Source: Candidatus Aenigmatarchaeota archaeon (GTDB taxonomy: Archaea; Aenigmatarchaeota; Aenigmatarchaeia; Aenigmatarchaeales; Aenigmatarchaeaceae). From it: a stretch of DNA of 64,000 nucleotides. Made by a program: the position numbers and the translations under genes. The notes under the pieces were generated by a model. It had not been told where the DNA came from and did no database searches. It saw nothing but the letters and a program-made list of their open reading frames with translations. The DNA is taken from NCBI GenBank assembly GCA_043814985.1, contig JBDRJK010000011.1, positions 26,778 to 90,777 on the forward strand, in the 5' to 3' direction. Within the stretch, counting starts at the first letter, position 1, and the number at the start of each line of letters is the position of its first letter. Shown one piece after another: positions 2,782 through 37,273 of this stretch.

Positions 2782-3165
2782 TCAAGACGTGAATTCTGTT
2801 AATCTTGTTTCACCGAAGAACTTCATCTTGGCTGCCTTGATTGTTCCCGAGACTCCCAGCACCTTGACAACAACCCTTGTGTCACCTATCCTTTCCATCA
2901 ATGCCAATGAAGCCCTGATATGCTCCACAGTTAAGTGAGAACATCTTATCAGGCCCATCTGTTTCTTCTCATCATAAATATCCCTTGCAATCCAGATGTC
3001 AGCCTCGGAAGAGCCATGCTCTCCTAAAAAGTTCAGGATGGAATGCCATATGCTGTTGATAAGGTCCTGCAGCAATACCTTCTCTTCCGATATCACCTGA
3101 TAGGCAATGTACCTTCTCCTTCCCCTCAGGCTCGGGGGCAGTGATTTCGGTCTTCTATCATCCAT
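2782..3165 (-). CDS. rnp2: RNase P protein Pop5 (Rnp2)
   Basis: LPPSLRGRRRYIAY, GLIRCSH, VLGVSGTIKAAK; ATG 1 nt after the rpp30 stop. Confidence 0.92.
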   Translation of the reverse strand: MDDRRPKSLPPSLRGRRRYIAYQVISEEKVLLQDLINSIWHSILNFLGEHGSSEADIWIARDIYDEKKQMGLIRCSHLTVEHIRASLALMERIGDTRVVVKVLGVSGTIKAAKMKFFGETRLTEFTS

Positions 3166-3166
3166 A

Positions 3167-3886
3167 CTAATCAACCACCTCAACACCATCTGTTATTTTT
3201 GTGCCTTCCAAAGTCTTCATGTTGTTTTGGATGATTTCCTGCGGGACAGACGTTACTCCATGGAATGCCTTGCCCAAGTCCAGACCAAGGACATTTGCCA
3301 TTGACACCAATTCCCTTGGTGCCCTCATGTCCCAGATGCTCTTGGCTCCTGAAGAGATTATGACCGGTGTCCTGTATTGGTTTGTCAGGTTGATGTTCTT
3401 TGTTATATGGTTGAGTATATATGACCTGGGCTTCCTGAAAGAGTAAAGAATCTCCCTGAAGTTTATCTGGATTGCCATGTTGTTCCTTGTGGCGCATGCC
3501 AAGCACACCTGATCCAAGCCGCTGTCTATTCTTCCCAACTCTGGGTGGGCAAGTATGTCCACCCTCGGGTCCTCGCATGCAGCCCTGTTAATATTATAGT
3601 TGCCTCCGGCGACAACAACAACCATGGCATTCTCCCTGGCCTTGGTTATCATTTCCTTTAGTTCGGGAACATTCTTTGCCTGTATGTAGGCCCCTGCATA
3701 GACTTCTGTATTAGTCTCAAGCTTGCTGATTGCTTCCTTTAGCTTGTCTATATTTTCCTTGTTCTCAAAGGTATCGCATATTGCTATTCCAGTGTATCCC
3801 AGCTTCTGCGCAAACTCGACTATCTCTTGTAGTGTATTATCACCGCTGGACAAATTGCTCTGGATGTGTAAGTCGTAAAATTTCGT
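3167..3886 (-). CDS. rnp3: RNase P protein Rpp30 (Rnp3); probable ACG start at 3886
   Basis: KFYDLHIQS N-terminus upstream of the ORF-track start; INRAACEDPRVDILAHP, ISSGAKSIWDMRAPREL. Confidence 0.9.
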   Translation of the reverse strand, partial: TKFYDLHIQSNLSSGDNTLQEIVEFAQKLGYTGIAICDTFENKENIDKLKEAISKLETNTEVYAGAYIQAKNVPELKEMITKARENAMVVVVAGGNYNINRAACEDPRVDILAHPELGRIDSGLDQVCLACATRNNMAIQINFREILYSFRKPRSYILNHITKNINLTNQYRTPVIISSGAKSIWDMRAPRELVSMANVLGLDLGKAFHGVTSVPQEIIQNNMKTLEGTKITDGVEVVD

Positions 3887-4013
3887 TCAAATCACCTTTT
3901 TAGAATTTGCTTTTTAAGTTTAAAAAATAGGTTGGAAAAAAAGAATTGTCAATTTTAGTGTATATAATTCTATTACCTTTTTATACCTAGAATTTAAATA
4001 ATTTTTAGATAGT

Positions 4014-8995: not shown

Positions 8996-9002
8996 AATTA
9001 AG

Positions 9003-9019
9003 TCCTGCCCTCCGCATTA
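9003..9019 (+). repeat. 17-bp direct repeat, copy 1 (TCCTGCCCTCCGCATTA), resembling a tRNA 3' end
   Basis: Identical to 9520-9536; the two copies flank the PAS gene. Confidence 0.8.
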
Positions 9020-9084
9020 CGCTTGCCCTACAAAGAGTATGGGTTATTTTAAATCTTCTGACTTGCAAATAAATCTGTGTTTAA

Positions 9085-9489
9085 ATGATAGGACAAATAC
9101 CAAAAGATGTTTTGGAATCATTATTAGAGACTATTCCTGTAGAGTTTTCTATTCTTGATGAGAATGACAAAGTATTGGCTTGGAACAAGCATGACACAAG
9201 AATTTTCAAAAGACCTGAAGGTGTTATTGGAAGGGACGTCAGGAACTGCCATCCAAAAAAGAGCCTTGAAAAAGTAGAAAAAATAATACAAGAAATGAAA
9301 GATGGCAAAAGGGATGTGGTAGAATTCTACATAGACTTACCTATCGGTGAAAGCAAGGATAAGCATAAGATTTTAATCAGATATTTTGCTCTGCGTGACA
9401 AGAAAAATAAATATCTGGGTTGTCTTGAGGTTACTCAAGACATTACACATATCCAAAAGTTAAAGGGCGAAAAGAGACTACTTGATTGA
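9085..9489 (+). CDS. Stand-alone PAS-domain protein
   Basis: LETIPVEFSILDEND, RIFKRP..VIGRDVRNCHP, YFALRD...YLGCLEVTQDIT. Confidence 0.85.
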   Translation: MIGQIPKDVLESLLETIPVEFSILDENDKVLAWNKHDTRIFKRPEGVIGRDVRNCHPKKSLEKVEKIIQEMKDGKRDVVEFYIDLPIGESKDKHKILIRYFALRDKKNKYLGCLEVTQDITHIQKLKGEKRLLD

Positions 9490-9519
9490 AGCTGGTAAAA
9501 AGTGGAATGATAGTAGCGT

Positions 9520-9536
9520 TCCTGCCCTCCGCATTA
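9520..9536 (+). repeat. 17-bp direct repeat, copy 2
   Basis: Identical to 9003-9019. Confidence 0.8.
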
Positions 9537-9568
9537 ATCAATAAATAATTCCAGCAACAATTCTCTCT

Positions 9569-9622
9569 ATGGAACTTTCTTCTAATGCTTCGCTTTGCGC
9601 TAAGTGTAAAGGACGAATATAA
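9569..9622 (+). pseudogene. Displaced 5' remnant of nreA (MELSSNASLCAKCKGRI*)
   Basis: LCAKCKGR matches the NreA start LCVRCKGTR; TATA-like ATAAATA about 28 nt upstream. Confidence 0.75.
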
Positions 9623-9695
9623 TTTAATTTTCATTAAGTTATTTTCACATAAGGTGGTTAATAATCAATAAATATTCCACCAACAATATTTAGTT

Positions 9696-10931
9696 ATGGA
9701 TAATGGAATAGTTGATTTCTGGTCTTTACCCCATGACAAAATTTATTTAAATTTAGAAAATGAATTAAAGGAAAAAATTTTCAATTCTTCAAAAGAATAT
9801 GCTGGGAGCTGGAGCAAATTAGGAAAATGTCTTGGCCTTTCCCTAAACAAATATGGAAGCTGTAAAATTATAGAAAGTGCTAGATGTAAAAAATTTAGTT
9901 TATTTTTACTTGATAAAATTATAGATTATTTGAATTCTAATGGCGAGAAAATAGATAAGAAGAATATAGAAAAGAAAATAACAGTACTTTCCTCTAAAAG
10001 AGGAGGTTCAAACAAGTTAGCCAACAGTATTTTCAATCCAAAGATACCCTTTAATTTTAATACTGTTGACGGTGCTACTGTCCTTTCTTCCATTTTTTAT
10101 GATGGTGGAATTAACAGCAACCTATTGCCTCATTATAGTAATCCAGACAATGTAGAACTGAGGAAAAGTGTGTTCGATTCTTTCACAAATGTTTTTGGCA
10201 CATTCAAATCTAAAAAAAGCAACCCCTTAGAAAATCCTCAGCTATACTTCCCAAAAATAGTCGGAGTAATTCTTGTTTATGGTTTAGGATTATCTTATGG
10301 AAGAAAAGTTGTAAATAATCCATCCATACCAGAATTCTTATTTGAATCCTCTGAAGAAATAAAATCATCATTTCTTCGACAAGCCTTTGATGATGAAGGC
10401 TCTGTCCACAAGACTAAAAGAAATATAAGTTTCAAATTGGCCTCTTCTTCTGAAAGACCTGCTAAACTTCTTACCGGTGTAAAATGTCTGTTAGAGAGTC
10501 TAAACATAGAGAGCAATGGTCCTCATTATGTTGATACATACAATACTAAGAACGGCATTACAGCTTCCAGATGGAGAATATCTGTAACACATCAAGATAA
10601 TTTAAAAAAGTTTTATGAAAAAATTGGTTTTCATTCATCCTATAAGAAAAATAGACTTAAGAATATTATTCATACATTAAAATACCCTCATTATTCTGTT
10701 AAAAATAGAAACAAAATTATTATAAAATCTTGCAGTGAACTTCAAAAAAGATACGGTTTTATAACTAGCAGAGAACTTGCAATACAAATCGACAGAAGTC
10801 GGGTCTTAGCTAAAAAGGTTATTCGAAAATTAGTAGATAGGAAAGTTCTCTTAGTTAAAGAATGCCGCCATGGAAATATGGGAGCTAAATATGTTTTAAG
10901 TGATAATTATGAATCTTTGTGTAAGATGTAA
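9696..10931 (+). CDS. Free-standing double-motif LAGLIDADG endonuclease-like protein with C-terminal wHTH
   Basis: VLSSIFYDGG and SFLRQAFDDEGSV motifs; KKFYEKIGF; C-terminal ITSRELA...IRKLVD helix-turn-helix; no intein splicing termini; AT-rich. Confidence 0.82.
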   Translation: MDNGIVDFWSLPHDKIYLNLENELKEKIFNSSKEYAGSWSKLGKCLGLSLNKYGSCKIIESARCKKFSLFLLDKIIDYLNSNGEKIDKKNIEKKITVLSSKRGGSNKLANSIFNPKIPFNFNTVDGATVLSSIFYDGGINSNLLPHYSNPDNVELRKSVFDSFTNVFGTFKSKKSNPLENPQLYFPKIVGVILVYGLGLSYGRKVVNNPSIPEFLFESSEEIKSSFLRQAFDDEGSVHKTKRNISFKLASSSERPAKLLTGVKCLLESLNIESNGPHYVDTYNTKNGITASRWRISVTHQDNLKKFYEKIGFHSSYKKNRLKNIIHTLKYPHYSVKNRNKIIIKSCSELQKRYGFITSRELAIQIDRSRVLAKKVIRKLVDRKVLLVKECRHGNMGAKYVLSDNYESLCKM

Positions 10932-12123
10932 AGGTACTAGGATTTTATGTGGAAAAAGTAGTTGTCCATTGTTGATAAAGTTCTATAGTTATATGAGAAC
11001 TAAACCACTTATTGATTCGACTACTCTCAATGGTTCATCGCCACCAGCTTGCTTTGTAGGTTCTTATGGATATCCCAAGGTTTTCGTGGGGCCCTTGGTG
11101 CCGCCGAAACACGGTGACACCAGCTTCATGGACACGCCTGAGATGTGGAGGGGCAAGACAATGTGGGACATAGTCGACTTCAGGTTCCAGCTGGTGAGGG
11201 GCAAGTTCGTGACTGATGTCAAGAACTTTGAGGGAAAGATAATCGAGCGGACTAGGGAGATTGCCCTGGCTCAGGAGTCTCCCAGTGCTGAGGTTGAGTT
11301 CAAGAACAAACCAAGAGGATTATCCTTTAACAGTGAGACACAGCCCTTTGGTCCGTCGGCAAATGTCATTGGCCTTAATATTGAAAACAAGGGCTACAAC
11401 AAGAAAATAGAAAAAGCGTTCTACGACACTGACCTGAAGGCTGTGCCTGCTGTTGTTGATCTTTACAAGAACGGCGTGCTGATTTCAAAAATACAGAAGG
11501 CTTTTTCTGTGGGTGCGTTTGGAATCGGAAAGAGCAGGAGATTCGTTCCAACGCGCTGGAGCATAACAGCTGTTGATGACATGATTTCAAAACATCTCAT
11601 AGAGCAGGTAAAAACATTCCCGCTGATAAACGAGTATCTGGTTTACGAGCACGCTGCTTTGGACAACCGCTGGTTTGTTTTAATGATACCACACGAATGG
11701 AGTTACGAGCAGATGGAAGCGTGGTATCCCAAGACATTGTGGAACCCGTCTGATGCAATTGACATATCAACAGCATGGGAAGGTTTCAACGGACTAAAGG
11801 GCTATCCGGATACAGCTGGCTGCTACTTTTCCACGAGGCTGGCTGCCACCGAGTACCTTGCCAATGAAAGGAGGCAGGCTGCTGTAATAGTATTCAGGGA
11901 AATCCATCCAGGTTACACTGTTCCTGTGGGTGTCTGGCACACCCGAGAGAGCATAAGGGATGCTGTCAAGAAAACTCCTGTTAGATTCAGCTCAATGAGT
12001 GGCGCCTTGGACTATCTGTCAAAGAAGATGACCATACCTGTTAAGAGGTGGGTTGAAAAATCCAGTCTTCTTAGGAACCTGATGCGACAGAGAAAGCTGT
12101 CAGACTTCATCAAGCCTTTCTAA
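10909..12123 (+). CDS. nreA: Archaeal DNA repair protein NreA
   Basis: LCVRCKG..LCG..CP Zn finger, GSSPP..FVG.YGYPKV, RRFVPTRWSITAVDD, C-terminal PIP box QRKLSDF. Confidence 0.93.
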   Translation: MNLCVRCKGTRILCGKSSCPLLIKFYSYMRTKPLIDSTTLNGSSPPACFVGSYGYPKVFVGPLVPPKHGDTSFMDTPEMWRGKTMWDIVDFRFQLVRGKFVTDVKNFEGKIIERTREIALAQESPSAEVEFKNKPRGLSFNSETQPFGPSANVIGLNIENKGYNKKIEKAFYDTDLKAVPAVVDLYKNGVLISKIQKAFSVGAFGIGKSRRFVPTRWSITAVDDMISKHLIEQVKTFPLINEYLVYEHAALDNRWFVLMIPHEWSYEQMEAWYPKTLWNPSDAIDISTAWEGFNGLKGYPDTAGCYFSTRLAATEYLANERRQAAVIVFREIHPGYTVPVGVWHTRESIRDAVKKTPVRFSSMSGALDYLSKKMTIPVKRWVEKSSLLRNLMRQRKLSDFIKPF

Positions 12124-12149
12124 GATAATTTAAAGTAAGGGCTGTGCTA
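12092..12149 (+). repeat. 58-bp diverged direct repeat, copy 1 (nreA 3' end plus downstream TATA region)
   Basis: 50/58 identical to 12843-12900 by manual alignment. Confidence 0.9.
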
Positions 12150-12800
12150 CTAGATGCCCAATAACATTGCAAGGGATTCAGAATCATGTCTCACGAAAGT
12201 TGCTCTGGGCCATTTTTTCTTTTGCTCTTTCTTGATTCTGTTTAGAGTACTGTTGTCAAACGACCTATAATCATCTGTTGCTATATTACAACCGAGTTCC
12301 ACTGAAGCTACTGCCACTGAGAAATCTCCATTCTCTTTCAGAATTTCTGAAATAACAGGATATTTTTTTCGATAATATTCGGTTGGCATGAAGGCATTGC
12401 ATACATTTTCTTTATTTTTTCTTAACCATTGTTTTATGTTTTCAGTCCCAGCCTTTTTTTCAAAGTTTCTGAGTTCTGCATAAACGTTATTTGTTATTAC
12501 AGGGCAAATACCAGCATCAATGAGAAGTCCTTCTTCAATAGCATCAACTATTTTCATTCCCCTTTTATGATAAATAATGCTCTTTTTCATCAGAAATCCT
12601 CTTTTTTTCCCGTATGCGTGTTGTTGGCATTTTAAAAATTCATTTATATTCCTGCTTTCTTTTGGAATTACTGACGATATTAAAATATTCGTGTCAAAGA
12701 CACTAATGTTTTCCCTTGGAATATTTACAAATTTCTCGAAATTAATTTCATCCATGTATATGGATTTTGGATTTAATTTTTCCAGTGTCTCCATAAGCAA
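12150..12800 (-). CDS. PIN-domain ribonuclease-like protein
   Basis: VFDTNILI, VYAEL, GDFSVA, IATDD acidic tetrad. Confidence 0.75.
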   Translation of the reverse strand: MLMETLEKLNPKSIYMDEINFEKFVNIPRENISVFDTNILISSVIPKESRNINEFLKCQQHAYGKKRGFLMKKSIIYHKRGMKIVDAIEEGLLIDAGICPVITNNVYAELRNFEKKAGTENIKQWLRKNKENVCNAFMPTEYYRKKYPVISEILKENGDFSVAVASVELGCNIATDDYRSFDNSTLNRIKKEQKKKWPRATFVRHDSESLAMLLGI

Positions 12801-32836: not shown

Positions 32837-34198
32837 ATGTTAAACAATTATTCTCCAAAAATAAGGAATGTTCTGAAAAAGGGTAAGATAAAGGTTGGAG
32901 ACAGGATTTCTGTTACAAAAGGTAAGAAGACTTATGAGGGCCTGTTGATGCCTAGAGCCGAGATAGGAGATTTGAATTCTATTGTAATTAAATTGGATAA
33001 TGGTTACAACATAGGCATAAGGTTTGAGAAAGGAACAAAAGTTAATAAGAGCAAGAAGAGAGAGCCCAGGAAAATCAAGGATGAGATGAAGTTCGAGATG
33101 GGTAAGGAGAAGTTCAAGAAACTGAAATTCGATCCTAAGAAGCCTAAAGTAGCTCTTATAATGACTGGTGGAACTATTGCTTCTAGAGTTGATTACAAGA
33201 CAGGCGGTGTCAGAGCCTTGGAAAAGCCAGAGGAGCTTGTGGCCAATGTTCCTGAACTGAAGGATATAATCTACATAAAGGATGTTTCCACTCCCTTTAG
33301 GAAGATGTCTGAGGACTTGGGTCCAAAGGACTGGCAGAAGTTGGCAAAGGTAGTAGCAAGAGAATTGAATAAAAACAGGGGAGTGATAATTGCTCATGGA
33401 ACAGACACTATGCATTATACTGCTGCTGCCTTGTCTTTCATGCTGAAGAACGTCTCCAAGCCAGTTGTTTTAGTTGGTTCACAGAGGTCTTCTGACAGAG
33501 GAAGTTCTGATTCTTCAATGAACCTTATCTGCGCTGCCCATGTTGCCATATCAGACATCGGGGAAGTTGGAATATGCATGCACGGCTCAACAGACGACCA
33601 TTACTGCTATTTCACAAGAGGAGTAAGTGCACGAAAACTTCATAGTACCAGAAGAGATGCTTTTAAGTCAGTTAACGAGCCGCCCCTGGCAAAAGTCTTT
33701 CCAAGCGGCAAGATTTCAATTATTAACAAGAATCATAAGAAAAGGGGTGATAAGAAAGTAATAGCTGATGTCAAGTTCGAGCCCAAGGTTGCTTTACTGA
33801 AAGTTTATCCAGGAAGCGATCCAGAGATTATGGAATTTTTGCTCAAGAAAGGCTACAAGGGATTTGTCATTGAGGGAACTGGAATGGGACATGTTCCTAC
33901 ATCAGCTGAAAAGTCCTGGATACCTACCATTAAGAAATTGACAAAGAAGGGCATACCAGTTGTCATCACAACGCAGACAATATACGGCAGGGTCAATCCT
34001 GATGTTTACACGAACCTGAGAATCCTGTTCCACGAGGCAGGGGCGATTCCTGCGGAAGATATGCTTAGTGAAGTTGCATACATAAAACTTGGTTGGTTGC
34101 TAGCACATTATAAGAATATAAACGATGTAAGGAAAATGATGTTAACCAACATGGTGGGAGAAATAAGAGACAGGTCTACTATTGATTCCTTCTTTTAG
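32837..34198 (+). CDS. gatD: Glutamyl-tRNA(Gln) amidotransferase subunit D
   Basis: KLDNGYNIG, TGGTIASRVDY, HGTDTM, GSQRSSDRGSSD. Confidence 0.97.
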   Translation: MLNNYSPKIRNVLKKGKIKVGDRISVTKGKKTYEGLLMPRAEIGDLNSIVIKLDNGYNIGIRFEKGTKVNKSKKREPRKIKDEMKFEMGKEKFKKLKFDPKKPKVALIMTGGTIASRVDYKTGGVRALEKPEELVANVPELKDIIYIKDVSTPFRKMSEDLGPKDWQKLAKVVARELNKNRGVIIAHGTDTMHYTAAALSFMLKNVSKPVVLVGSQRSSDRGSSDSSMNLICAAHVAISDIGEVGICMHGSTDDHYCYFTRGVSARKLHSTRRDAFKSVNEPPLAKVFPSGKISIINKNHKKRGDKKVIADVKFEPKVALLKVYPGSDPEIMEFLLKKGYKGFVIEGTGMGHVPTSAEKSWIPTIKKLTKKGIPVVITTQTIYGRVNPDVYTNLRILFHEAGAIPAEDMLSEVAYIKLGWLLAHYKNINDVRKMMLTNMVGEIRDRSTIDSFF

Positions 34199-35390
34199 CA
34201 GAGAAGATGGAATCCCGGTTTTTAATGAAAATTTTTACTGAATTCATATCCTTATTAATATTTTCCCTCCCTTCATTATTGACTTTCTTGTATTGTAGAA
34301 TTTTATTTAAGAGTGCCAATTTTTTATACGGGTTTAATTCAAAGATGTCATTTTTGTATAGCTTCAGAAAACCATCTAGATTCGTTATTATAATTCTAGG
34401 AGGAGATGTTGATGTGGCCTTTGAAGGGGACGACTTTATATCTAAAAGATTTAGGCATTGGTTTGCCACAGCTAATTCATTATTGTTAACTGAAGCGAAT
34501 TGAACTGCTCTATCATAACTTCCTACGTAAGCCTCTCCGGCTAAATAACCTTTGAGATAGTATACTGCTAACTTTCTGTTGCCAATTACTTTCTCTTTAA
34601 CATGCTCCAATAGTTTTAATATGACTCTTCTAAAGATGGTGTTATTGTAATAGATATCTGTAGAACCCCATGGAACATTTTTCCTCATCTTGCCCTTTGT
34701 ATTTTTAGTATAGTGTGGCGAACTAGATTGCTCATTATTGGGACTTAATTTTGTAGTTTTTAGCCAAAACTCTCTAGATGCCTTTTCATCAGATTCTGTA
34801 TACTTTCTCTTAAGTTTTCCATTGAAGATTATTCTCCATTTCAGTTTTTCAGGGCTTATTTTAAAGAATTTGAAAAAATCTAAAATCCTTTGTATCATAA
34901 CAGGTTCGCTGTTAACAAATTCTAAGCTCTTTGGATTAGTCTTTGTCGCTTCAGCCACTAACAGACCGCAAGAAGACACAATTAACTCATTTAAGGGTAT
35001 TTCTTTAGGGATAAACATGTAATGATTTTTATAGCCTTTGTTGTAGTGTGAAGTACTGTACCAAAGATATGAATAATTTTCTGGTACAACTTTTTTGATT
35101 TCTATCCTTTTTACCAGCCTCCATTTATCTGAGAATCTGAATGATTTATTGATTTTTCTTCCTTCCGTTCTTTTGACAATTTTCTTATTTTCAAGATTTG
35201 ATAGGACTTTTCTTACTGTCCTCTTTTTATAGTTTGAGGACTTGTATATTTCTTTTGTTGTTTTGGAACCATCTTGCAACAAGTCCGTGACCCTCAAATC
35301 CAAAGGCATTTTGTCTATAATTTTTTCTCCACTATTCGAGACTTTAATTTTACTGTCATTTTTTACCAATTCCTTTGTTAGAATTTTCAT
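34179..35390 (-). CDS. Free-standing wHTH + LAGLIDADG endonuclease-like protein
   Basis: N-terminal KTTKEIY...RTVRKVLSNLE wHTH; SCGLLVAEA and YLKGYLAGEA motifs; EFVNSEP; AT-rich. Confidence 0.75.
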   Translation of the reverse strand: MKILTKELVKNDSKIKVSNSGEKIIDKMPLDLRVTDLLQDGSKTTKEIYKSSNYKKRTVRKVLSNLENKKIVKRTEGRKINKSFRFSDKWRLVKRIEIKKVVPENYSYLWYSTSHYNKGYKNHYMFIPKEIPLNELIVSSCGLLVAEATKTNPKSLEFVNSEPVMIQRILDFFKFFKISPEKLKWRIIFNGKLKRKYTESDEKASREFWLKTTKLSPNNEQSSSPHYTKNTKGKMRKNVPWGSTDIYYNNTIFRRVILKLLEHVKEKVIGNRKLAVYYLKGYLAGEAYVGSYDRAVQFASVNNNELAVANQCLNLLDIKSSPSKATSTSPPRIIITNLDGFLKLYKNDIFELNPYKKLALLNKILQYKKVNNEGRENINKDMNSVKIFIKNRDSIFSAKRRNQ

Positions 35391-35467
35391 ATATCTTAGT
35401 TCCTCTATCTATATTTAAAAAGTTTTGTACAACTTATATAAGTGCTAAAAAAATGTTAATTGGTATT

Positions 35468-35515
35468 ATGATAGATATTACAAAGAGGACAGAGATAGAG
35501 ACTTTTATGGTGTAG
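35468..35515 (+). pseudogene. Possible displaced gatD 3' remnant (MIDITKRTEIETFMV*)
   Basis: Aligns with the current GatD end EIRDRSTIDSFF*. Confidence 0.5.
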
Positions 35516-35518
35516 AAA

Positions 35519-35830
35519 ATGGTAGAAATGACAAAACAAGAAGAATTTTTAAATTTAATAGAGAAAATTGACGGAAAGAATCCAAGATTGTTTTTGGAAC
35601 TGTTTATGAAAAAATATAATCATGAAATAACTGATTATTGTTATGTGACAAGTTGCGAGCACAATCATATTGAAGGTACTTCCCACAAAGCTTTCTTTTA
35701 TGAGATATTGGACGGTTCCCAATTGTGGGTAAAGGATTCCATAGGTAAGATAGTCACCATATCTTACAATAATTACAGAAAAGATGTCATGGAAGTCTGG
35801 AGGGAGCGTCAAAAAAGGAGGAATGGCTAG
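35519..35830 (+). CDS. Hypothetical protein
   Basis: ORF abutting the gatE start. Confidence 0.55.
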   Translation: MVEMTKQEEFLNLIEKIDGKNPRLFLELFMKKYNHEITDYCYVTSCEHNHIEGTSHKAFFYEILDGSQLWVKDSIGKIVTISYNNYRKDVMEVWRERQKRRNG

Positions 35831-37273
35831 ATGACCGATTACAAAAAGATAGGTTTCAAATGTGGAATAGAAATTCATAATCGTCTAGACACGAAAACAA
35901 AACTGTTCTGCAACTGCAAACCAAGATTCTCTGAATCAAAACCAATCTCATTAATCAAGAGAAAACTCAGGGCAGTGGCAGGAGAAACTGGACAAGTGGA
36001 TGTTGCTGCATTATATGAATATCTGAGAGATAGGACATTCTTCTACCAGTGCTATCCTGATGAAACATGTTTGATATGCATAGACGAGGAGCCTCCAAAG
36101 TCTGTAAACAAGGAAGCATTGAATGTTTCGTTGCAGGTAGCAAAGCTTTTGAAAGCGGAAATACCAGATGAAATCCATATAATGAGGAAAACTGTTATTG
36201 ATGGTTCTAACACCTGCGCCTTCCAGAGAACAGCAATCGTAGGTATGAACGGAGTCTTGAAGACATCACAAGGAGACGTTGGAATAACTAATATTTCTTT
36301 GGAGGAAGAATCAGCAGGCAAAGTAAAAAAAGAAGGCAATGAACTAACCTACAGATTAGACAGATTGGGCATTCCTCTTGTTGAAATGGGGACAGCACCT
36401 GACATAAAGAGTCCTGAGCATGCAAAAGAAGTTGCTGAGAAGCTGGGAATGATGATAAGGTCAACAGGCAAGAGCCAGAGAGGTATTGGTGTTACAAGAC
36501 AGGACGTCAATGTTTCAATCAAAGGTGGAGCAAGAGTCGAGATAAAGGGAGTTCAAGAATTGGACATGATACCCCAGCTGATTAATAATGAAATCAAGAG
36601 GCAGCAGGAAATGATAAAGAAAGGAAAGAAACCCAAAGAAGAAACCAGAATAGCAAAAGCAGATGGGACAACCGAATTCACAAGGCCCCTGCCAGGAGGA
36701 GAACGATTATACCCGGAGACTGATCTGGAGAGCATTGTAATTACAAAGCCATTCCTTTCAAAGATAAAGGTTCCTGAGACATGGGACCAGAAGGCAAAAA
36801 GATTCAAGAACAAATTGCCAAAAGAAATGGTTGATCAAATACTAAGAAGCGAATACTTGGATTTGTTTGAAAAGTTTTCCAAAACTTACAATCCTGTTTT
36901 GGTTGCCAATACATTCACATCAACTGTAAAGGACTTGAGTCGCCAAGGTCTTGAGACAGAATTTACTGAAGAACAGTTTGATAATATTTTCTCTTCTGTT
37001 AAGAACAAAACAATTTCAAAGGAAGCTATACCTAACATTCTGGAAATAGTTGCCAGGGAAAAAACTTCTGTTGAGCAGGCAATAAAGAAGAGCGGCCTCA
37101 AGGGCATGTCAGAGGATGATTTGAGAAAGATAGTGAAGAAAGTAATTGAAAAACACCCTAACCTAGTCGAGCAAAAAAGAATCCCCCCTCTAATGGGAAT
37201 AGTAATGAAGGAAGTCAGGGGAAGGATATCTGGCAAGACAGTTGCTAAAATTCTGAACGAAGAATTAAAGTAA
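35831..37273 (+). CDS. gatE: Glutamyl-tRNA(Gln) amidotransferase subunit E (short form)
   Basis: GFKCGIEIH, MRKTVIDGSNTCAFQRT, LDRLGIPLVE, RPLPGGERLYPETD; no AspRS-like insertion. Confidence 0.95.
   Translation: MTDYKKIGFKCGIEIHNRLDTKTKLFCNCKPRFSESKPISLIKRKLRAVAGETGQVDVAALYEYLRDRTFFYQCYPDETCLICIDEEPPKSVNKEALNVSLQVAKLLKAEIPDEIHIMRKTVIDGSNTCAFQRTAIVGMNGVLKTSQGDVGITNISLEEESAGKVKKEGNELTYRLDRLGIPLVEMGTAPDIKSPEHAKEVAEKLGMMIRSTGKSQRGIGVTRQDVNVSIKGGARVEIKGVQELDMIPQLINNEIKRQQEMIKKGKKPKEETRIAKADGTTEFTRPLPGGERLYPETDLESIVITKPFLSKIKVPETWDQKAKRFKNKLPKEMVDQILRSEYLDLFEKFSKTYNPVLVANTFTSTVKDLSRQGLETEFTEEQFDNIFSSVKNKTISKEAIPNILEIVAREKTSVEQAIKKSGLKGMSEDDLRKIVKKVIEKHPNLVEQKRIPPLMGIVMKEVRGRISGKTVAKILNEELK

Follow-up and report, generated by a model that had tools for sequence, protein, structure and literature searches.

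Elements that displace one end of a gene and supply a substitute for it are known from fungal mitochondria. We describe here a locus at which a homing endonuclease gene (HEG) has very probably done the same to the 5' end of nreA, in a 64,000-nucleotide stretch of DNA (the window) from the chromosome of a Candidatus Aenigmatarchaeota archaeon. In the mitochondrial elements, termed mORFs, a foreign stretch coding for the C-terminus comes with a LAGLIDADG or GIY-YIG open reading frame (ORF), and the displaced native C-terminus persists downstream; examples of such hybrids are atp6 of Allomyces macrogynus, atp6, atp9, cox2 and nad3 of Glomus, atp9 of Rhizopus, and cox2 of Mortierella (PMC3630166). 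Several features are common to the mORFs and the nreA locus: a LAGLIDADG ORF is accompanied by a foreign version of the gene end that it displaces; the native end, similar to that of close relatives, apparently persists unexpressed as a second copy, and the inserted end is divergent; and the hybrid gene is intact without splicing (PMC3630166). In both systems two copies of the gene end flank the HEG, one live and divergent and the other stranded and native-like, and the same site is occupied in different lineages. By analogy, the nreA cassette is a mirror-image variant of an mORF, which is its closest known parallel. The mORFs replace a 3' end and are fused in frame downstream, whereas at nreA it is the 5' head that has been exchanged, and the HEG is a separate, out-of-frame ORF on the upstream side that overlaps the gene start; a promoter and a start codon therefore have to come with the cassette as well. 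Furthermore, the nreA cassette resides in an archaeal chromosome rather than an organelle, and some of its relatives contain additional cargo ORFs, among which is a reverse transcriptase.

Other homing systems are less similar. Archaeal intein and intron enzymes such as PI-PfuI, PI-PkoII, the TliVMA intein, I-DmoI and I-Tsp061I share with the nreA enzyme a two-domain LAGLIDADG fold and a predicted target in conserved housekeeping-gene coding DNA, but the nreA HEG has no splicing element, its product shows negligible sequence likeness to solved chains, and it possesses extra N- and C-terminal domains that resemble DNA-binding modules. Free-standing HEGs of T-even phages, among them those for SegF, SegG and MobE, move by intronless homing (PMC2790892). 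Unlike the nreA enzyme, the phage enzymes are of the GIY-YIG or HNH type and act between co-infecting phage genomes, and they are not known to leave a stranded gene-end duplicate or to replace a promoter or head. The phage arrangement is otherwise like the one proposed here, in that the endonuclease gene lies between genes, its product cuts the HEG-less allele close by, flanking markers are co-converted, and the donor is shielded by site differences.

Free-standing HEGs in an archaeal chromosome have been noted in the glycosylation islands of Haloferax, with the proposal that they promote gene conversion in the DNA around them; that report describes no target gene, duplicated gene end or hybrid gene (PMC5867893). 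Beyond this remark, a literature search that excluded subscription journals found no archaeal description of a cassette of the nreA type. As for the gene affected, Nre proteins consist of Nre_N and Nre_C, have a PCNA-interacting (PIP) motif at the C-terminus and may have a Cys4 motif at the N-terminus; NreA is a PCNA-binding repair factor that is non-essential in Haloferax and whose Cys4 head is not universal (PMC4929162). Because of this non-essentiality and the patchy occurrence of the Cys4 head, the NreA head may tolerate replacement.

Anatomy of the nreA locus

We read the interval 9662-11070 as very probably a selfish cassette, made up of an nreA-type promoter, a LAGLIDADG HEG and a foreign nreA head, that entered the 5' part of the host nreA and left a hybrid gene. 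The genome that holds the window (G000) comprises 808 kb in 21 contigs, with a GC content of 0.40 and an estimated completeness of 91%; G001-G003 are its congeners, G017 belongs to another genus, and L081-L084 are metagenome loci. The elements of the locus, as we interpret them, are the following.

9535-9561, plus strand: putative native-type nreA promoter, TAATCAATAAATAATTCCAGCAACAAT, with ATAAATA at 9541-9547, 22 nt 5' of the stub ATG
9569-9622, plus strand: apparent dead nreA 5' stub of 17 codons, MELSSNASLCAKCKGRI, and a stop; ATG at 9569, TAA at 9620-9622
9623-9661, plus strand: spacer between stub and cassette promoter, with the left edge of the cassette somewhere within it
9662-9687, plus strand: putative cassette promoter, an nreA-type copy, with ATAAATA at 9668-9674, 22 nt 5' of the HEG ATG
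9696-10931, plus strand: free-standing double-motif LAGLIDADG HEG, 411 aa; Pfam LAGLIDADG_3, E 1.9e-8
10909-11058, plus strand: apparently foreign replacement head of nreA, codons 1-50, with four Cys retained
11059-11070, plus strand: short, apparently foreign tract past the junction equivalent at 11058/11059, with genus-type sequence from 11071
11071-12123, plus strand: native nreA body, comprising the rest of Nre_N, Nre_C and a PIP-like C-terminus, QRKLSDFI

The intact nreA (10909-12123, 404 codons) matches Nre_N at E 2.9e-94 and Nre_C at E 8e-39 in Pfam. Its new head contributes four Cys (C4, C7, C14 and C19), its protein ends in QRKLSDFIKPF, which we take to be a PIP motif, and the product has all the features expected of NreA: Nre_N, Nre_C, the four Cys and the PIP-like C-terminus. 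The gene starts 23 nt within the 3' end of the HEG in another frame, the HEG stop TAA being embedded in the nreA Cys-Lys codons TGT AAA. Stub, HEG and nreA all differ in reading frame, and each possesses a start and a stop codon. The HEG is free-standing: no Rfam intron family matched window positions 9000-12300 at E up to 1, and intein splicing blocks are absent from what is a separate ORF with a Met start and its own stop.

The mini-ORF at 9569-9622 is, by sequence resemblance, a remnant of a native-type nreA start. The NreA N-termini of 14 HEG-less relatives, which have the form M..SS...LC(A/S)KCKGRLWCGK.RCP, that is M..SS...LCAKCKGRLWCG, were used in tblastn searches of all six frames of the 808-kb genome. 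For 11 of these 14 queries the mini-ORF was the second-best match after the live nreA head (E 6e-4 to 0.39); the other three had no match to it in that genome. The best query, from G003, aligned from Met1 with 11/17 residues identical, and the resemblance to native heads stops at codon 16-17. The sequence TGTAAAGG does occur at both 9605 and 10927, as the sequence-only reading of this DNA had pointed out, within a repeat that spans 20 nt and is 75% alike; taken by itself it is merely the Cys-Lys-Gly codons, the 10927 copy including the HEG stop, and not a target-site duplication.

The upstream signals are duplicated as well. The pattern ATAAATA(N5-8)CAACAAT has only two copies in the 808-kb genome, one 5' of the stub and one 5' of the HEG (in the window, a fixed-spacing version recovered only the first), which rules out a generic promoter consensus as the source of the 9535/9662 repeat. 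A like motif with the same ATG spacing precedes nreA in 11 relatives or stubs, that of G002 being CAATAAATAATTCCAACGTTAATTCTTGTTATG, with about 26/33 bases in common with the promoter of the G000 stub, and the cassette promoter AATAATAAATAATACCNCCAACAATATTTAGYTRTG is conserved 5' of the HEG in six loci. Given general archaeal promoter geometry, the position of ATAAATA 22 nt from the ATG in both promoters suggests leaderless transcripts. The ATG of nreA is preceded, in the last codons of the HEG, by (A/G)GTGA(T/A), which is conserved in six loci (AGTGAT in G000) and may be a ribosome-binding site on a bicistronic message.

Mosaic nature of nreA, and the endonuclease

Through the HEG and as far as about 11070, GC content is 0.30-0.35; beyond that point it is 0.51-0.57. 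The GC content of third codon positions (GC3) is 0.234 in the HEG, which places it at the 2.6th percentile of 385 long ORFs, and 0.22 in nreA codons 1-50, as against 0.571 in the body (96th percentile); in the congeners G001-G003 the head and body of nreA are alike, at 0.52-0.63. Nucleotide identity between G000 and G002 is 0.52-0.64 over the first 55 or so alignment columns, 0.87-0.93 over columns 71-110 and 0.73-0.91 further on, and the body protein is 88% identical to that of G002. Compared with G017, it is the head (0.68-0.73) that is the more similar part, the body ranging from 0.47 to 0.82. Base by base, G000 goes with the cassette type up to 11070, the end of GGTTCTTATGGATAT, and with the genus type from CCCAAGG onward, and contigs from runs X1 and X3 that carry a co-occurring HEG-less allele like that of G001 align to the window only from 11071, with native-type sequence before it. 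These comparisons indicate that the first 50-54 codons of nreA are foreign and that the switch at 11070/11071 is a recombination boundary.

Phylogenies of the two parts are discordant. Trees were built from 359 body columns and 54 head columns, leaving out G087 (the pattern did not match) and relatives below about 50% identity. In the body tree G000 lies within its genus with G002, G003 and G001 (support of 100 and 99 in the Shimodaira-Hasegawa-like approximate likelihood-ratio test, SH-aLRT), the presence of the HEG needs four changes, and a clade of the six HEG-linked rows is rejected by the approximately unbiased (AU) test (p 3.3e-34). In the head tree those six rows form one side of a branch, a result as low as which arose in 0/500 label shuffles; G000 pairs with L083 (support 97), and its grouping with its own genus is rejected (AU p 0.024). 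The carried head and the nreA body thus differ in evolutionary history, the bodies following the host phylogeny.

Most of what the sequence-only reading had anticipated is borne out by these data. It had related the mini-ORF behind the TATA-like ATAAATA to the NreA start, taken the HEG to be free-standing, intron-less and intein-less and linked to a foreign, recoded 5' segment of nreA, and seen by eye a composition break near 11070; the native queries, the three frames and empty Rfam search, the identity and GC3 profiles, the separate trees and the HEG-less contigs together uphold these points. It had also expected that the nreA of HEG-less relatives would begin with an LCAKCKGR-like head at the promoter that precedes the mini-ORF. 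HEG-less relatives do show a head of this kind behind a promoter of the same type, and all 14 have VF near the end of the head, unlike the 10909 version. Its description of the body as host-like holds for this gene within the genus, whose nreA GC3 is equally high, although the body lies above the genome mean.

The endonuclease is, by both of its motifs and its predicted fold, a double-motif LAGLIDADG homing endonuclease. Motif 1 (...IFYDGG, D136) and motif 2 (...AFDDEG, E234) each end in an acidic residue, and D136-G137 and D232-D233-E234 are invariant in 18 aligned HEG relatives. The LAGLIDADG_3 match in Pfam covers a single domain, the second only. An AlphaFold model (predicted local distance difference test score, pLDDT, 91.2; predicted template modelling score, pTM, 0.83) has the alpha-beta-beta-alpha-beta-beta-alpha double-domain fold of LAGLIDADG enzymes, with an additional helical domain on the N-terminal side and a winged-helix-like one on the C-terminal side. 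Foldseek against the PDB places 7qsu, the TliVMA intein, first (E 5e-8), together with 1dq3 and 2cw7; further matches are PI-PfuI, PI-PkoII, PI-SceI, I-DmoI and I-Tsp061I, and also WhiA. Searching the PDB by sequence gave as best match the unrelated Pvc1 (E 0.02), the best LAGLIDADG enzyme being PI-PkoII (E 0.09). Of the 15 pairs among the six cassette HEGs described below, two were saturated; in the remaining 13 the ratio of nonsynonymous to synonymous substitution rates (dN/dS) is 0.06-0.19, and the least saturated pair, G017-L081, has a dN of 0.054 and a dS of 0.47. The HEG protein is therefore under purifying selection. Separately, a 40-nt AT-rich stretch within the HEG (9736-9775) is matched by very abundant contigs in all four runs, with two differences and a GT insertion, a word depth of up to 178, and unrelated flanks on both sides.

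Recurrence, probable insertion site and competing explanations

Close relatives of the HEG lie directly 5' of nreA in G017 (68% identity) and in L081-L084 (about 64-69%), and a 45% relative does so in G087, making seven nreA-linked loci including G000, of which six are close. Loci related to the cassette bear DPANN-type labels (Woesearchaeota, Nanoarchaeia, Aenigmatarchaeota). The heads linked to the six close HEGs are of one type, M(N/S)(L/Q)C...LL(I/V/L)KFY..., ending in SSPP(S/A)CF(I/V). The stubs found upstream of the HEG outside G000 are as follows, with a hyphen at the junction.

G017: 57 codons, ending ...SSPPSVFI-NL and a stop
L084: 57 codons, ending ...SVFI-SLNNR and a stop
L083: about 50 codons, frameshifted immediately ahead of the same point
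G087: about 65 codons, interrupted by an in-frame stop; its end lies about 12 codons earlier
L081: no stub, a cupin gene abutting the HEG promoter
L082: contig end too near to assess

Judged by sequence, the stubs are of the native type found in the local lineage, that of L083 resembling G008 and that of G017 resembling G019 and G020, and in G017 and L084 both the stub and the live head have the full Zn-finger motif. Between stub and HEG some loci carry cargo: ORFs of 257 aa in G017 and 247 aa in L084 are homologous (56% identity), neither the L083 ORF (237 aa) nor that of G087 (145 aa) is related to these, and L084 also has a reverse transcriptase ORF at 2931-3992 (RVT_1, E 2.5e-21). The ORFs of G017 (257 aa), L084 (247 aa) and L083 (237 aa) match no Pfam family, neither they nor the G087 ORF have a relative in the G000 genome, and the G000 spacer at 9623-9661 is without the cargo that relatives carry at that position. 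A 25-nt motif, TTAAAT..TTTACTT.TAGTAAT, follows the junction directly in G017, L084 and L083. The genes upstream of nreA vary among genomes (PAS, NUDIX, cupin). In run X2, contigs leave the window sequence at 10869-10912 and continue as an L082-like cassette variant with a head beginning MSQCALCKG; a second nreA cassette variant therefore co-occurs in the same groundwater sample.

The sequence-only reading had placed the break in the Zn-finger codons, and here it needs to be revised: the stubs of G017 and L084 run 57 codons to ...SSPPSVFI, that of L083 runs about as far, and the one in G000 appears to have been shortened. The conserved coding site SSPPSVF(V/I)-G(S/R)(Y/F)NYPKVF, equivalent to 11058/11059 in the window, is most likely both target and insertion point, because stubs never pass it, two or three end exactly there, and the foreign tract of G000 ends 12 bp beyond it. 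Close to this site, HEG-linked heads have CF (TGCTTT) in all six close copies and HEG-less heads have VF in 14 of 14, with GTNTTY in the 13 matched at the DNA level. This Val-to-Cys change is the only amino-acid difference near the site that is fixed between the six close HEG-linked and the HEG-less alleles, and it is a candidate immunity change.

These features suggest the following sequence of events. The enzyme would cut HEG-less nreA alleles at the site equivalent to 11058/11059, and repair would copy the cassette from an HEG-bearing allele, with homology provided on the left by the stub and on the right by the body. The carried head, rather than splicing, would rescue the gene; transcription of this head together with the HEG presumably begins at the cassette promoter, and its own ATG, preceded by the Shine-Dalgarno-like AGTGAT, would start translation. 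The altered site in the head, with TGC in place of GTN three codons before the junction, would shield the invaded allele, and in G000 the stub and any cargo would later have been whittled down to the present 17 codons. Such a cassette may still be mobile today.

Several observations weigh against this account. The nearest sampled HEG is only 69% identical, so that no recent donor has been sampled, and the G000 copy may be an old resident, because its stub is cut to 17 codons and its cargo is lost. The stub has a GC3 of 0.235 over its 17 codons, unlike the heads of the congeners, and may for this reason have travelled with the cassette instead of being G000's own. Stub ends vary by locus (codon 17, about 50, 57 and about 65), and the stubless L081 fits equally well an HEG that simply sits upstream of nreA. 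The case for a common site draws mainly on G017, L084 and L083, of which G017 and L084 may not be independent since their cargo is homologous, and the head of G087 has IF rather than CF. In the head tree the branch of the six HEG-linked rows has an SH-aLRT of only 29 on its 54 columns, and the AU rejection of G000 with its own genus reaches only p 0.024. A look for RNA runs covering 9000-12200 found none. Joints of an HEG-less allele of the same strain were not found among contigs of the four runs, though contigs drop rare variants and so carry no weight either way; over the window, run X4 yielded just a 292-nt low-depth contig (9363-9654). Finally, an HEG paralogue next to topA in the same genome has no stub upstream and no GC3 break in the topA head.

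Ordinary intronless homing is the alternative that fares best, although we consider it doubtful. The HEG would sit between the nreA promoter and start and cut the HEG-less allele about 165 bp downstream, the head being an obligatory co-conversion tract and the stubs illegitimate left joins at a non-homologous upstream flank, so that every element of the cassette reading is present except the role of the stub. The position of the L081 HEG right at the promoter, the nreA-like cassette promoter, the upstream neighbours that differ by genome, and stub ends that vary and never pass the site are all consistent with it. On the other hand, the junction position is common to G017, L084 and L083, as is the motif that directly follows; the stubs of these loci appear native to their lineages, and in the tree their bodies fall on three different branches. 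This combination fits repeated precise insertion with the stub as a homology arm; L081 has its upstream cupin gene in common with G017 and could have arisen by deletion.

We think it unlikely, slightly more so than intronless homing, that the G000 cassette is an immobile fossil whose enzyme is kept for a host function, such as WhiA-like regulation of nreA, or has simply not yet decayed. The shortened stub, with loss of cargo and left arm, is what a fossil would show, as is a nearest HEG at 69% identity; the fold matches include WhiA, the expression of nreA is probably dependent on the HEG promoter, and long-term purifying selection is unusual for a purely selfish HEG. Against these points, the catalytic acids of both HEG motifs are invariant, phylogenetic discordance records past movement between genera, and other cassette variants occur in the same samples (run X2). 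WhiA itself, unlike the cassette HEGs, presumably lacks the invariant catalytic acids of both motifs.

The two remaining alternatives are ruled out. Duplication and divergence of the nreA head in situ, with an unrelated endonuclease gene landing between the copies, would explain two CxxCKG heads 1.3 kb apart and is highly improbable, as the live head groups with heads of other genera, a grouping with its own genus is rejected, its GC3 is far from that of the congeners' heads, and the HEG-plus-head unit recurs in at least six other loci. That the endonuclease lies in an nreA intron or intein with the stub as exon 1 can be virtually dismissed, even though archaeal LAGLIDADG enzymes are classically intron- or intein-borne and the best fold matches are intein enzymes, given the three frames with their own starts and stops, the lack of an Rfam intron match over 9000-12300, and the fact that joining stub and head in G017 or L084 would double the Zn-finger motif.

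If the cassette reading is correct, it would represent a third way for an HEG to live harmlessly in an essential-type gene, neither as intron nor as intein but with a spare copy of the displaced part, which at nreA includes the promoter and start codon. Gene fragments would thereby cross genus boundaries in archaeal chromosomes, and the resulting chimeric proteins would confuse annotation and single-gene phylogenies. A simple annotation rule would be that a short orphan ORF repeating the head of the gene after next flags such a cassette. The native site around NreA codon 57, paired with the Val-to-Cys hybrid site that is predicted to be resistant, may also define a new LAGLIDADG specificity.

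Related endonucleases and neighbouring genes

Relatives of the HEG are widespread in the class, 129 of 371 genomes having a match at E 1e-5 or better, a count that includes intein-embedded copies (open frames of 900-2100 aa). At 9 of 27 further loci a Pfam-recognised gene starts on the same strand within 35 nt of the HEG stop, namely topoisomerase (2), AlaRS (3), L22 (2), RtcA and an NTPase. Besides topoisomerase, the gene 5' ends abutted by an HEG relative on the same strand are these:

alaS: L051, L055 and L060
rpl22: L038 and L048
rtcA: L043
NTPase gene: L049

No stub was found at topA (L002, L058), alaS (L051, L055), rtcA or others; at L060 a weak 15-residue match to the AlaRS start lies upstream of the HEG (E 0.002). 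The topA-linked paralogue of G000 (30% identity; C14:83812-84930, equivalent to L002:1492-2610) ends exactly where topA starts, topA being a type IA topoisomerase gene (Toprim and Topoisom_bac), and in another genome L058 has a relative before topA. Since this paralogue has neither stub nor composition break, the head-replacing design is not general to the family, and it is demonstrated for nreA only. Downstream of other relatives, frames for proteasome alpha (L057, L061, L063) and SAM synthetase (L044) have no start codon and lack their first residues, their Pfam profiles beginning at position 8-24; these truncated frames may reflect an interruption, an unusual start or a split gene.

Conserved genes adjoining HEG relatives, and read here as possible targets, are nreA, alaS, topA, rpl22, rtcA and psmA. 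It is conceivable, and we propose it only tentatively, that the family acts as natural cleave-and-rescue gene drives of ultra-small archaea, each targeting the start or end of a conserved gene, supplying a promoter with a substitute head, and in this way moving heads, promoters and cargo between genera. If so, gene fragments would regularly be exchanged through such cassettes in DPANN genomes, and gene splitting there may have come about in the same way.

Elsewhere in the window, a 403-aa ORF lies on the minus strand between gatD and gatE (34179-35390); no stranded gatD tail came to light in 34150-35900 when the 80 C-terminal residues of GatD were used as a tblastn query. Around nreA itself, further features were recorded. 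5' of the cassette locus lies a PAS-domain gene:

9085-9489, plus strand: PAS-domain gene, PAS_10 E 5e-27 (Pfam)

In G000 this gene sits between a VIT1-like membrane gene and nreA; in the congener G003 nreA comes directly after the VIT1-like gene, with no PAS gene there. On the 3' side of the G000 nreA, a 216-aa ORF matching no Pfam family occupies the minus strand at 12150-12800. Unlike G000, the loci L082-L084 and the congener G001 have after nreA an SplB-like radical S-adenosylmethionine (SAM) gene, a known neighbour of Nre genes.

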